Assembly (NCBI GenBank): GCA_964016885.1
Contig: OZ024763.1
Coordinates: 19,530,001-19,594,000 of the forward strand
Source: Eledone cirrhosa
Lineage: Eukaryota
Direction: 5' to 3'
DNA: 64,000 bases
Shown: piece by piece, positions 22,958 through 30,496 of the stretch
Position numbering within the stretch: the stretch's first letter is position 1
How the letters are laid out: each line of letters begins with the position of its first letter
Program-made: the position numbers and the translations under genes
The notes under the pieces: model-generated
What the model was told of the DNA's origin: nothing
Database searches by the model: none
What the model saw: the letters and a program-made list of their open reading frames with translations, nothing else

Positions 22958-24955
22958 CTAATGGATACAATTTACACTACCAGAACTTTTAGGTTTATAA
23001 TAAAAGTAAGAATTAGAAATGGCGTGGGGGCAAGAAGAGAATATCTCAGACTTTCTATTAAGTAAGAGTTCCCTAGAGAAAATTATAGAGTGGGTCTCAA
23101 GGATACAGAGATTACAGAATTTAGTGTGTGTTGATAGGTTATTAGAGTGTGCTACTATTCGCCAATTAAGGCTATATGGTATATTAGTCCCCTTAAGATC
23201 CCAGATATGGTGTGCTAAAGAAGTAGAATTCTTAAACTTAACATGTTTAAAATTAGAGATATGAGAATTAAACCTAGTCTTAAAAGTGTTAGATGTTGAG
23301 TCTATATATGTGTTATTAGAGGAATTAGTTTTAACTATACAAGCATAAACGATGTTCTTAGAGAGGCAGTTAACACTCACTCTGCAGTTACACTTCCGGG
23401 TGCTATTAATCGGCTGAAGTAGTGATGCATCTCTCGTAGGGTTACTATGAGATAAGGTCTGCTCAGGTGGTAAGGCATTTATGGATCTATCCAGACTAGT
23501 AGTACGCAGAGAGGGGTAGTAGCCGTCCCTAATTTTCCCATTGTTAGTGCTAGCTAAAAGAGAACTAATATTAGGGGTGGTAGAGAATGATAGTTTAATT
23601 ACATTTTTATTAAAAATACCATGGTATTTATTAGTAGGATGGAAATTTTTCTCTAAGATAGAAAAGAAAGACCTAGGGATGTTAGTTAATACTTCCTGAT
23701 TATATGGCGGGTTAAAATAAGTATTTAGTCTCCTATTTCTATCCTTACCAACTCTACCGTTATCTAATATCCCATTATTATTAAGATCTGGGTTACTACG
23801 AGGACTAGTTAAAACCACATTATTAGAATCAGCCGAAACTACATTGAGTCTCTTTCTGTTTCTACTGCTATCTGGAATCATATCAAAAGGATTAGAGCTA
23901 ATAATATGATCAGTAGAAACAACACTATTAGAATTAGATTTAGCATAAGCATCACCACTGAGTGAGCGCTCAGAGCGCCCAACTTGATCCCTAGAACTAT
24001 TAGATTCACTATTACGAATCCGGTGGCTTAACTTATGGATGGGTTCGGATACACCTATGTGATTTCTACGATTCTTATGCTTTCTACTCCCATTCATGGC
24101 CATATTATGGGATATTATGTTATTATTATATGTAAGCGGAGACTTTCTAAGGTTACTATTATTATAATGTATTTTACCAGAGTAACCGGAGTTATCTAGG
24201 GCGTTATTATAGTACTCTGCATGTGCATTAAATATTCCTATGTCCTTAGAGAGTGTGGAAATTCTATTAGATACACCATTAATTATAGAGCTTATCATAG
24301 ATTTGGGGTGGTTAGAATTGGGACTAACATAAGAATGTATTTCATTAGGCTTATGGAAGGGTTTAAAACTATTAGTGACCAAGTCCAAAGTCACATCTAA
24401 AAAGTTGACCGCTCTATCATTTCTATCTCTCGTGATCGAAAGGTTAAAGCTTTTAAAAAACTTGTAAAGTTTCTTCTTATTATGCTCGATATTATTGGTG
24501 CTAGAGTTAATCACAAACAATGAGTCGTCACGATAGAGTCCGCCTTTAAGGTGCGGAAAGGTAACATACAGTTCATTTAGGAGGAACAACCCAACAAGAT
24601 CAGTTACCTGGGCCGAATCACTCGAACCCATTGTTGGGCGTGTTTTTACGGGTCCAAAATGTATCCTCAAAATTGATGATAGTTCTATAGGCTGCTAGTA
24701 TAATATCAATCTGTGATCGTGTAAGGCTGGACACTCTCATGGCCATCATTAAGGCTTTATTGAGGAGGATAGGTGAAATCGATGTGTAATAGGCATCAAT
24801 ATCAAACTGGATAAACCTACTAGATTCAAGTTTATTAATACCAGAGAACCAATCTATAACCTCCTTAGTGTTCCCCCATAGATTAAAATTAACCTTCTCC
24901 CTAACGGCTGGTATAATAAGGTCAAAGATTTTCTTACTAATTATGGCTATATCAG
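22958..24955 (-). mobile_element. Penelope-like (Naiad-type) element, 5'-truncated; RT plus GIY-YIG, 570-aa open segment
   Basis: QFDIDAYY (about 24800), MGSSDSAQVTDLVGL, GLYRDD, NFLDVTLDL, CNCR, IVY..YIDST..FKTRFNSH, CNLCILE, LNRKSEIFSSCPH. Confidence 0.92.
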
Positions 24956-26520: not shown

Positions 26521-28099
26521 TATATATATATATATATATAAAATTTATATATATATATAAAATTTATATATATATATATATAAAATTTATATATATATAT
26601 AAATTTTTTATATATATATATATATAAATATAGTTTATATGATAGTTGTAATGTCACAACTGCCGATTCATATCAGCCTTTCCCTGGACAACATGATATA
26701 TAGTCTATATATATTGGACAATATTATATAAAGTGTATATATGATGTATATAGTAGTTATGACAATATTCTATATACATATGTAGAGACAATGTATACAC
26801 ATAAATATATACAAACACATATATATTTTATAGTGAACTCATACAGCATATCGTAATATCATGTTCTCAGCCAGGGTGTCCTTAAGACACATCACTCCAC
26901 ATGTCTCTAATCTCCACAGCTGAAAAAGACAAGTAGCAGAATTAGTTGGAGGTTTGGCATGGGCTGGAATATTCTCTGCCTCCAATATTTTCACTTCGGC
27001 CACAAATCCCAGCTCAGACTGAAATATAACATCTCTCCCTCTCCCTCTTCGGTGGATTGGCAGTATCGGGAGGGTCGGACGCCATGCTTTGCAGCATAGC
27101 TACGGCCCTTCAAATCCTGCCGAGATTAACTTTGCTTTTCATCCTCACAGGGTTGATAAAATAAAGTATCAGTAATACACTGAGATAATTGCTGCCCTTG
27201 TCCCTATGGTAGAAATCATTATTTTCGTTGCTTGATTCGTTTTCGTTTTTCCTCTTTACATTTTCATTTATTAAATGTTTTCTTTTAACAGTTATGTAAA
27301 ATAATTTATACACATCAGAATAAAGAGCTAACATATTGAACGTATGAATTAATATAACTGAAGGTCTTTCTGAATGTATTAAATTATGTAGGGGACTTTT
27401 AAGTCATGACACCGGCTTCATGTAGCCAATAGAAAATTATCTGCGTCGGCTCCATTGTTTCATCTTATACCTAATCTAATTTTATCTTTTATGGTGATTA
27501 TTTCATATTAACGTGAACGTTAATGTTTGTAAGTAACATAAGGTGACCTTATAGTTGTTGTTTTATCACCTGTATTATTAAATATTTCATTTCATCACAA
27601 ACAACCCCCAACACCGTGAAGTGGTTGTTCAACATTTTACAGGACAGGAAAATATTATTTTAGTGAGAAATCAGTGAACATTTAGTTTTAACTAAATTTT
27701 CTTGACTTTATATTTGGTCTTGAAAACCAATGTACGTATTATTTCGTTTTCCATCACAACGAAAACATTCTACACTTTTCTACTATCGGAAGTGAAATAT
27801 CTTGATTTATTACAACGCGTACACACATATTTCTACACACTCACACCTAGTTATTTCTCTCTCATACGTACACACTATGTTTATATATATATATATTAAC
27901 TATCGTCTTTTGTAATCATGAATATTAATTCTCTTGTGACCTGAACTGTCCTCAATAACAAGAACCTTAACTTTCGAAGACATGGTCTGTTTTATGAGCT
28001 GAGGATTTTAGTGTGAATAGAGCTTCTTTCACCTTAACAAAAATAATAGTGGAATACTCCAGAATAATCTCTCTCTCTCTCTCTCTTCATCCTAGAAAT

Positions 28100-29089
28100 A
28101 TGTCTGAATATAGCTGTGAGATTTGCCGAAAAACTTTCCCTTCAAAACTGAAACTATCCTCACATTGGAAAATACACAGTGAAATATGTGGTGAATCTTT
28201 TGTCTTCAACAGTGAGTTGAAAAGGCATATAAGACCACACACTGGAGAGAAACCTTATTCATGTGAAATATGTGAGAAATCTTTTTCTCATGGTTCTATT
28301 CTTGTAGATCACAAAAGAATACACACAGGCGAAAAACCTTATTCATGTGAAATATGTGGGAAATCCTTTTCTCGTGGTTCTCATCTTGTAGTTCACAAAA
28401 GAATACACACAGGAGAAAAACCTTATTCATGTGAAATATGTGGGAAATCCTTTTCTCGTGGTTCTCATCTTGTAGTTCACAAAAGAATACACACAGGAGA
28501 AAAACCTTATTCATGTGAAATATGTGGGAAATCCTTTTCTCATGGTTCTGTTCTTGTAAAACACAAAAGAATACACACAGGAGAAAAACCTTATTCATGT
28601 GAAATATGTGGGAAATCTTTTTCTGATGGTTCTGACCTTATAAAACACAAAAGAATACACACAGGAGAAAAATCCGTTCATTGTGAAATATGTGGGAAAT
28701 CTTTTGTCTCCAACAGTGACTTGAAGGGGCATATAAGAACACACACTGGAGAAAAACCTTATTCATGTGAAATATGTGGGAAATGTTTTTCTCATGGCTC
28801 TCATCTTATAGTTCACAAAAGAATACACACAGGAGAAAAACCTTATTCATGTGAAATATGTGGGAAATCTTTTTCTCATGGTTCTATTCTTGTAAAACAC
28901 AAAAGAATACACACTGGAGAAAAACCCTTCCATTGTGAAATATGTGGGAAATCTTTTGTTTCCAACAGTGGCTTGAAAAGTCATACAACAACGCACACAG
29001 GAGAAAAACCTTATTCATGTGAAATATGTGGGAAGTCTTTTTCTCGTAGTTCTTCTCTTGTACGTCACAAAAGAATACATGCTGGATAA
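28100..29089 (+). CDS. Tandem C2H2 zinc-finger protein (ZNF-3), 12 units (finger 2 degenerate)
   Basis: Paralog-conserved ATG at 28100 (MSEYSCEIC). 21-bp deletion of the first linker. In-linker TAA stop. Confidence 0.88.
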   Translation: MSEYSCEICRKTFPSKLKLSSHWKIHSEICGESFVFNSELKRHIRPHTGEKPYSCEICEKSFSHGSILVDHKRIHTGEKPYSCEICGKSFSRGSHLVVHKRIHTGEKPYSCEICGKSFSRGSHLVVHKRIHTGEKPYSCEICGKSFSHGSVLVKHKRIHTGEKPYSCEICGKSFSDGSDLIKHKRIHTGEKSVHCEICGKSFVSNSDLKGHIRTHTGEKPYSCEICGKCFSHGSHLIVHKRIHTGEKPYSCEICGKSFSHGSILVKHKRIHTGEKPFHCEICGKSFVSNSGLKSHTTTHTGEKPYSCEICGKSFSRSSSLVRHKRIHAG

Positions 29090-29191
29090 AAACCTTAGTC
29101 ATGTGAAATATGTGGGAAATCTTTCACATGGAATTTTACACTGGTTGTTCACAAACACGTTATTGTTTGTAAATCTTTTATTTAATGACTG

Positions 29192-30396
29192 GGCGAAATC
29201 CAATTTTAGCGGCATTTAGGCCGCTTACTTGCTGCTTACTTCAATGTATGAGGCTATTCCAACAAATTTACATTCCCCCCTTTTTTTAGCCGTTAAAAGA
29301 AATATAGATTTATTAGAGAGGGGGGTGCTCCCTTCTTCTCTTACCTGTACAAGCCGATATAGAGAGATGGCCCACGTACACGGGCCATTATTGCTACTTT
29401 CACCCATCTTTCTTGGAATTGGCTGGGACTGAGTGCCTTTTTCTCCAAGAGGACTATTTGTTGGCCGGCGACATATCCCCACAGTTTCCTCGTTGCAAAC
29501 GCATCTGGGACATTTCTTTTCCAAGGGGTTTCTGTCCCGGAATCCGTGTCTGTAGAGCCTTTCCCCGAACGGGCAGGGCCCCTCGGTATAATAGTAAGTA
29601 TTAGTGGTTGTAATAAAAATGCAATCAAAATGTAATAAATACTTTCACTGATTTCTTTCCTTATATTATCAACAGAAGTTGGTATGTCACCCAAAGTTCG
29701 CTTTGTATGTTCCCGAATAGCAGTGAATTTTGATAAAATTGTTTCTAATTCCTTCTCCACAGTAAGACAAATATCCATGTGTAGTTGAAGAGGATAAGTA
29801 TGAAAGAACAGTCATTTAAATTTACAGATGGACAGATGTGGTGTTTGGCAGGGTTTGAGATATATAGAAAAATAATTATTTACAGAAAAAGAAAATAATA
29901 ATAAAGAATTATTATAATTTTTTTAAAAATTTATATCTTTTTGGACTTTTATTACAACCACTAATACTATTATACCGAGGGGCCCTGCCCGTTCGGGGAA
30001 AGGCTCTACAGACACGGATTCCAGGACGGAAACCCCTTGGAAAAGAAATGTCCCAGATGCGTTTGCAACGAGGAAACTGGGGGGATATGTCGCCGGCCAA
30101 CAAATGGTCCTCTTGGAGAAAAAGGCACTCAGTCGCAGCCAATTCCATGAAAGATGGGTGAAAGTAGCAATAATGGCCCGTGTACGTGGGCCATCTCTCT
30201 ATATCGGCTTGTACAGGTAAGAGAAGAAGGGCGCACCCCCGTCTAATAAATCGCCCCCAAAAAAAAAAAATCTATATTTCTTTTAACGGCTAAAAAAAGG
30301 GGGGAATGTAAATTTGTTGAAATAGCCTCATACATTGAAGTAAGCGGCAACTGCAGCAAGTAAGCGGTATTTAGGCCACTAAAATTGAATATCGCC
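29192..30396. mobile_element. Non-autonomous fold-back DNA transposon (Merlin-like), ~430-bp inverted arms, 8-bp TSD
   Basis: AATGACTG at 29184-29191 and 30397-30404. Ends GGCGAAATCC... and ...AATATCGCC. Arms about 29192-29618 and 29947-30396 are reverse complements. Confidence 0.9.
29643..29778 (-). pseudogene. RMND5: Captured first coding exon of an RMND5/GID2-like gene
   Basis: MDICLTVEKELETILSKF...RTLGDI...IRKEISE resembles the RMND5A N-terminus (MDQCVTVERELEKVLHKF..., recalled from memory) and is followed by a donor-like A|GTATTT. Confidence 0.75.
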
Positions 30397-30496
30397 AATG
30401 ACTGAGATTGACCTACATCTCATGAATGCCATGGAAGATCGTAGCGTCTAAAAGAGAAGAGTAGAATTGTTGAGGCCAATCCACCTGATCTAATAA

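Follow-up and report, generated by a model that had tools for sequence, protein, structure and literature searches.

How does the first coding exon of RMND5, a subunit of the CTLH/GID E3 ligase, come to lie within a small DNA transposon, and has it retained any function there? These questions are raised by one element of the window, by which we mean the whole 64,000-bp stretch of Eledone cirrhosa DNA that was analysed. Our results suggest, with a probability that we put at roughly 85%, that the window copy is a non-autonomous Merlin fold-back carrying this exon, that the exon was likely captured once, at the DNA level, into a transposase-coding element, and that it has spread unselected.

The element in the window and its parts

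The element (29192-30396) is 1205 bp long, has the ends GGCGA.../...TCGCC and is framed by an exact 8-bp TSD, AATGACTG, leaving the borders and GG-starting termini of an earlier sequence-only reading as they were. It is non-autonomous, and transposase is absent from it. The arms, 29192-29624 and 29941-30396, are equal at 409 of 429 aligned bases (95.3%), in agreement with the ~430 bp proposed for them; the 316 bp between them are slightly fewer than the ~330 bp given for the spacer. The 45-codon frame followed by a donor-like site is also present: on the minus strand, an ATG at 29778 opens 45 codons, which are followed by one base and a GT at 29642-29641. That single base, the last of the exon, is A in the window copy and G in the RMND5 parent.

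What did not survive is the description of the arms as plain inverted repeats, since they consist instead of a Merlin terminus of ~120 bp, the 3' fragment of a LINE and RMND5 intron (Table 1). The ~275 bp of LINE origin have a GC content of 53%, against 27% in the spacer. A longer version of the LINE piece, in a progenitor-type copy (L098), matches zf-RVT (PF13966, E 3.8e-7), and the piece is 82-86% identical to free LINE copies with RVT_1 upstream. It extends to the natural 3' end of the LINE, as expected of a 5'-truncated insertion. Within the terminus, a short loop (29208-29225 and 30363-30380 in the window) occurs in either orientation depending on the copy, GGCATTTAGGCC or GGCCTAAATGCC, in what amounts to a micro-inversion between very small inverted repeats.

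Table 1. Parts of the window element and its nearest neighbour (positions in the window)
Feature	Position	Strand	Basis or remark
Left TSD AATGACTG	29184..29191	+	Sequence comparison of flanks
Merlin native 3' terminus and subterminal region, ~120 bp	29192..29314	-	Aligns with the 3' end of L098:3220-6113, a progenitor-type copy
Internally deleted LINE 3' fragment (ORF2 C-terminus, zf-RVT region, start of 3' UTR)	29315..29591	-	PF13966 match in L098; free LINE copies
RMND5 intron, first 48 bp, GT donor at 29642-29641	29595..29642	-	Matches L091:472-519
Coding part of RMND5 first coding exon, 136 nt	29643..29778	-	128/136 identical to parent; 7 replacement codons, 0 silent
RMND5 sequence before the ATG (5' UTR and/or intron)	29779..29932	-	Matches L091:166-335
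Remnant of Merlin sequence 3' of the transposase stop	29933..29950	-	Last 4 bases, TTTT (29947-29950), common to the fold-back copy
Inverted copy of the element's 3' end, replacing 5' end and transposase	29947..30396	+	22 bp of RMND5 intron, LINE fragment (29970-30240), terminus
Right TSD AATGACTG	30397..30404	+	Sequence comparison of flanks
C2H2 zinc-finger ORF, 363 aa, neighbour outside the element	27998..29089	+	Stop ~100 bp before the insertion

To judge from its sequence, the window copy is a dead passenger; it is in antisense orientation to a zinc-finger ORF that ends ~100 bp before it. Nine C2H2 zinc-finger ORFs form a tandem cluster on the plus strand of the window (6353-63544), with 4 to 26 fingers each, and no empty site for the insertion was found among the paralogous zinc-finger genes of the window. 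The segment 30398-30500, which starts within the TSD, is another dispersed repeat, also found near 2671, 36919, 43730 and 59249.

The RMND5 cargo and its Merlin family

The 45-aa cargo peptide matches residues 1-42 of human RMND5A weakly (E 0.047); it was not recognised in a Pfam scan and found no match in a word-index protein search. The host gene was found via the CTLH family: two exons on C5 match human RMND5A (E 3e-16 and 2e-21), and ~9 kb upstream of them lies the parent of the cargo (L091:166-519), identical in 314 of 354 columns (89%). The peptide of this parent exon matches residues 1-43 of RMND5A (E 5e-4), and downstream of the exon come an intron of 5703 bp with GT..AG borders and further exons. 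The proposed likeness of the cargo to the RMND5 N-terminus is thereby confirmed, and comparing the spacer with the host genome, as had been suggested, leads to a parental exon with matching intron and upstream flank. The intact gene is on C5 and the window on C24, so the window copy is not the RMND5 gene itself. Nor did we find signs of a functional RMND5 paralogue, as there is no other RMND5 exon at the element and no purifying selection (6-7 replacements, 0 silent).

The cargo retains sequence upstream of the ATG and part of the intron (48 bp in the window, ~85 bp in L098). Unspliced sequence was captured, most simply DNA, as the sequence-only reading had supposed. Shared breakpoints and six substitutions common to the cargo copies suggest that the piece was likely captured a single time; the tree of cargo segments is poorly resolved. 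An older repeat with another copy in the RMND5 intron is an unlikely source of the cargo, because the cargo is a coding exon. In the least changed copies, 6 of the 136 exon bases differ from the parent (95.6% identical), and all six are replacements. This comparison covers cargo segments with an ungapped exon, and both the borders and the count of six replacements are equal among the closest. Given 106 replacement and 29 silent sites, six replacements out of six are compatible with neutral drift. A full HMMER search with the peptide gave 62 matches, the best of them a protein from another source that is identical to the parent peptide, which indicates that the substitutions arose on the element side. 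The cargo peptide thus appears to be an unselected passenger with no sign of selection, and the uninterrupted 45-codon frame loses the importance first attached to it.

The window element has many relatives. Its spacer has near-full-length matches of 96-100% in all 40 candidates scored, out of 106, and a 17-base terminus occurs 444 times in the genome, against 0 for the reversed control; these figures show that the element is not a product of chance. The copy number is at least 40. TSDs were tabulated in 40 elements with both ends, chosen by similarity, not at random. Among them, 23 have an exact 8-bp TSD, nine have one with one mismatch (32 of 40 at no more than one mismatch, in the tabulation that had been proposed) and eight have none; exact 9-bp TSDs number zero. 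Copies with different TSDs show that the cargo moved after its capture. The termini of the window copy and of the family are GGCGATATCCAA, starting 5'-GG, and inside such termini, with a TSD, the locus L101 matches DDE_Tnp_IS1595 (PF12762, E 5.8e-12). Similar matches lie ~150 bp from cargo copies within the family termini, and in long copies the transposase is directly upstream of the cargo. The family transposase has an N-terminal CxxC..CxxC motif, with a Zn_ribbon_IS1595 match (E 0.0055) that stays under the cut-off.

Merlin elements (IS1016/IS1595-related) are defined by 5'-GG termini, 8- or 9-bp TSDs and DDE_Tnp_IS1595, according to the available part of PMC8101967, and our family has in common with them GG termini, 8-bp TSDs, this domain and imperfect TIRs. 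The superfamily call of the sequence-only reading is therefore upheld by a transposase between the same ends, and neither hAT nor MULE linkage was seen. A hAT identity for the window element was rejected: the transposase linked to its termini is PF12762, and the hAT described below is a separate host element. Among the molluscs analysed in PMC10294476, as far as its accessible text goes, Merlin is nearly restricted to cephalopods.

The progenitor-type layout is seen in L098:3220-6113, where a short imperfect TIR is followed by transposase, RMND5 piece, LINE piece and TIR. Transposase frames reach the cargo border in 11 of the 13 copies scanned, and in L108 and L131 they continue into the cargo by BLAST. 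As the transposase directly precedes the cargo in the longer copies, the capture likely took place in a transposase-coding element. The idea of host-exon capture thus holds, and the event belongs to this family rather than to the window copy. We found no ancestral, cargo-free copy of the cargo-bearing family; the ~58 bp of cargo left in L148 suggest a deletion rather than such an ancestor.

Fold-backs and the hAT-borne derivative

Mapped on L098, the right arm of the window element is an inverted 3' end; it has replaced the 5' end and transposase and meets the rest of the element at the TTTT of 29947-29950. This junction was found once in the genome, so the window fold-back may have formed at or after insertion. 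The family has at least 10 different fold-back centres, ranging from the 22 bp of cargo mirrored in the window to a full palindrome of 3828 bp. In the latter, a perfect palindrome (L096:1045-4872), two transposase genes lie back to back, and the TSD is exact. The commonest form, ~1.7 kb with the exon on both arms, accounts for ~23 of the 40 scored elements. Elements with two 3' ends have their own TSDs, which implies that they moved as such. Exon-free fold-backs with these termini are frequent as well, and a different Merlin family without RMND5 cargo includes a palindrome with two inverted transposase genes (L104:943-3988). Fold-back formation may be general for Merlins in this genome. From the junction homologies, which were examined closely for the window copy and L148 only, we infer that fold-backs would arise by template switching at short homologies. 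The same termini also bound cargo-free MITEs of 450-800 bp that derive from the LINE-derived arm (L195, L196, L131:6127-6913 and L097:165-624), several of them nested in family copies.

One Merlin fold-back lies inside another transposon. A hAT family of 13 copies, 97-100% alike, has ends CAGTGGCGG and an 883-aa transposase ORF with DUF4371 and Dimer_Tnp_hAT, and a Merlin fold-back of 1306 bp is nested in its 5' end, framed by a TSD of its own, GTAATTTG. Each arm of this fold-back, which is kept at least partly in all 13 copies, includes the cargo, shortened in frame by 45 nt, and Merlin 5' sequence lies at the centre. TSDs and frames were scored in 12 of the 13 copies, leaving out the copy at L266, which was mapped full length: seven have both ends (five exact 8-bp TSDs, one with one mismatch, one none), and the 883-aa frame is intact in two of the 12. 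The family is young, with an element of 4.4 kb, CAGTGGCGGATT ends and an 8-bp TSD; one of its 13 places is L234:2635-7073 (G000:C2:364151800-364161700).

The RMND5 donor lies 516-547 bp upstream of the hAT acceptor in nine of the 12 scored copies. The acceptor is 11 bases before the transposase ATG, its AG is preceded by a pyrimidine tract, and a native donor candidate stands ~65 bases before it. The predicted splice product has a 31-codon upstream frame that stops 6 bases before the transposase ATG. We placed contigs of two runs on the transposase-plus-cargo copy and decoded the splice from two contigs of run X4, which give a mixed consensus. A 1435-base X4 contig with parent alleles departs exactly at the donor, with one consensus for two loose ends (agreement 0.53). 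On the assumption that ties are broken alphabetically, one loose end is RMND5 exon 2, which makes it likely that X4 is RNA. The pattern for the other loose end has seven matches genome-wide, all at the hAT family acceptor, and none in the control. Together with exon 2, the hAT matches reproduce all 30 printed letters in each case, six of these at agreement 0.533, and among the 2.7 million 30-mers of the loci compared only the hAT family reproduced the consensus. An alternative RMND5 exon and unspliced intron were tried as the second loose end and did not reproduce it. Read in this indirect way, the contigs of this one run suggest that some hAT transposase transcripts, whatever their share, likely have the RMND5 exon joined, through its donor, to the hAT acceptor. 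In X4, the 5' half of the Merlin transposase (L095:3179-3725) is also covered, at low depth, by contigs that may reflect transcription or DNA carry-over.

These observations can be arranged into a history. A Merlin copy would have gained ~390 bp of RMND5 between the transposase stop and the 3' terminus, probably through a switch of template as a gap was repaired, and a 5'-truncated LINE would have landed beside the RMND5 piece, probably by retrotransposition. Repeatedly, the 3' end would then have been copied inverted over the 5' end by microhomology-guided template switching, while the transposase still moved the resulting elements with two 3' ends; the window copy, with its TTTT junction, would be one such product. 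One fold-back presumably inserted in the 5' end of a hAT, which then multiplied and whose acceptor before the ATG was likely joined to the RMND5 donor. The hAT-borne derivative is without the LINE body, so the arrival of the LINE may precede or follow the insertion into the hAT. A bolder scenario would have the housekeeping exon, once passed from Merlin to hAT, co-opted as the spliced 5' exon of a hAT mRNA transcribed from the promoter of the nested Merlin, thus helping to launch the burst of 13 copies, with dozens of perfect exon hairpins that could silence RMND5 in trans. We regard this scenario as tentative, and rather doubtful as a whole.

Alternative readings and known systems

Was the cargo-bearing element ever autonomous? 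The RMND5 piece could have entered a dead Merlin by gap filling and depended from then on upon a sister family acting in trans. None of the cargo-bearing copies scanned has an intact Merlin transposase, their longest frame being 283 aa, and a sister family (62% aa identity, no RMND5 match in any of nine loci) has a 316-aa frame (L161) and similar termini; many other Merlin frames of ~330 aa exist in the genome. Yet the sister termini, GGCGATACTTGG, differ from GGCGATATCCAA, and most of the disabling lesions are confined to single copies; across 11 copies, the majority columns are open for 328 aa with the D-D-E motifs. Because of the private lesions and this open majority frame, the cargo-bearing element appears likely to have been autonomous once, and we consider movement in trans from the outset unlikely.

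Two further alternatives concern what the exon does now. The hAT junction, decoded via a mixed consensus and not read directly, might stem from a copy deleted at the DNA level, from a chimeric assembly or from trans-splicing that starts at the genuine RMND5 exon, especially as the kind of run of X4 is not on record and its loose ends are visible in part. We find this distinctly improbable: the decoded partner starts exactly after an AG with a pyrimidine tract, at the distance from the RMND5 donor given above; its seven matches are hAT without exception; a precise deletion is present in none of 12 hAT copies; and X4 also carries the normal RMND5 exon junction across the 5703-bp intron. Less probable still is that the cargo works for the host, putative small RNAs from hairpins with the exon on both arms tuning RMND5 and thereby favouring spread. 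Such hairpins are the commonest form, 92% of the element is in inverted repeat, the exon remains close to its parent, X4 contigs carry element-type alleles over it, and the window copy, with a predicted fold of -823 kcal/mol, lies antisense just behind a zinc-finger ORF. But exon-free fold-backs are common under the same termini, the second Merlin family (L104) is palindromic without cargo, and the 40 elements that give these frequencies were picked by similarity. Spread of an unselected passenger, captured into a transposase-coding element, remains the reading that we prefer.

Exon capture by TIR transposons (Pack-TIRs) is known in animals, including Ssk-FB4 of Drosophila (Tan et al. 2021, PMC8277862). 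In the available parts of that study, no Merlin is among the 370 Pack-TIR cases, the name occurring only as a column head in supplement 8, and the sole mollusc had none. Here, too, a parent can be named (L091:166-519), the intron is retained, copies have different TSDs, and the window copy is non-autonomous, the family also having copies with a transposase that is now broken. The likeness to the animal cases, as that partial text describes them, extends to DNA-level capture of a few hundred bases from a distant parent, multiple copies and chimeric transcripts (PMC8277862). They differ in having a handful of copies, against at least 40 here plus 13 inside the hAT, and our cargo, which resides in an element coding for transposase, is incorporated into the inverted arms. 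Unlike Merlin as described in the accessible portion of PMC8101967, in our family the transposase is followed by a host exon and a LINE piece, and most copies have two 3' ends; few Merlin proteins are reported there with a CxxC..CxxC motif such as the one seen here.

As in plant Pack-MULEs with extended TIRs, the acquired sequence joins lengthened inverted repeats, but superfamily and kingdom are different, and in our family mirroring takes in entire 3' halves as far as the transposase (for Pack-MULEs, PMC3310237, in its available part). The bat HelibatN3, which carries a NUBPL fragment, resembles our case in having captured the 5' part of a gene together with its start codon and splice donor, in having multiplied, and in splicing into acceptors further downstream, to follow what is accessible of PMC4778049. 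It is a rolling-circle element whose cargo includes the NUBPL promoter (PMC4778049), whereas the RMND5 cargo has ~170 bp before the ATG (5' UTR and/or intron) and its likely acceptor belongs to the transposase of another transposon. Neither gene capture by a Merlin nor a captured exon spliced to another transposon's transposase was found in the literature searched, which excluded the repeat libraries Repbase and Dfam, subscription journals and bioRxiv supplements; a library consensus might hold the cargo unannotated. The sequence-only reading, which knew of no such description, was right about Merlin within this literature and overlooked that exon capture by TIR transposons in animals had already been described (PMC8277862).

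With these results, Merlin joins the superfamilies for which capture of gene fragments is known, and the copies clearly outnumber those of the multicopy cases published for animals. The interest lies in the history of the family and in the likely hAT splice rather than in the window copy itself. Since the parent gene, progenitor-type copies and many intermediates occur in one genome, one can put the steps by which the piece was captured and the fold-backs arose in order and test them, and these steps illustrate how elements with short TIRs become long fold-backs by mirroring their 3' end. The splice, if true, is a case of host sequence rewiring the expression of a transposon, and the exon-bearing hairpins offer a route to test trans-regulation of RMND5. 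Long and variable inverted arms on a cut-and-paste element are otherwise typical of the fold-back elements Galileo and FB, in lineages that are P or MULE, in contrast to the Merlin described here, whose arms are of host and LINE sequence.

Other sequences of interest accompany the family. ORFs that we take, from their look, to be Penelope-type retroelements occur at 22958-24694 of the window (minus strand), L095:5192-7000 and L103:5119-6325, with inverted pairs in the last two loci. An intronless ORF on the minus strand of L100 (6041-6907), presumably caspase-like by its motif, lies ~1 kb from a cargo-bearing Merlin copy.
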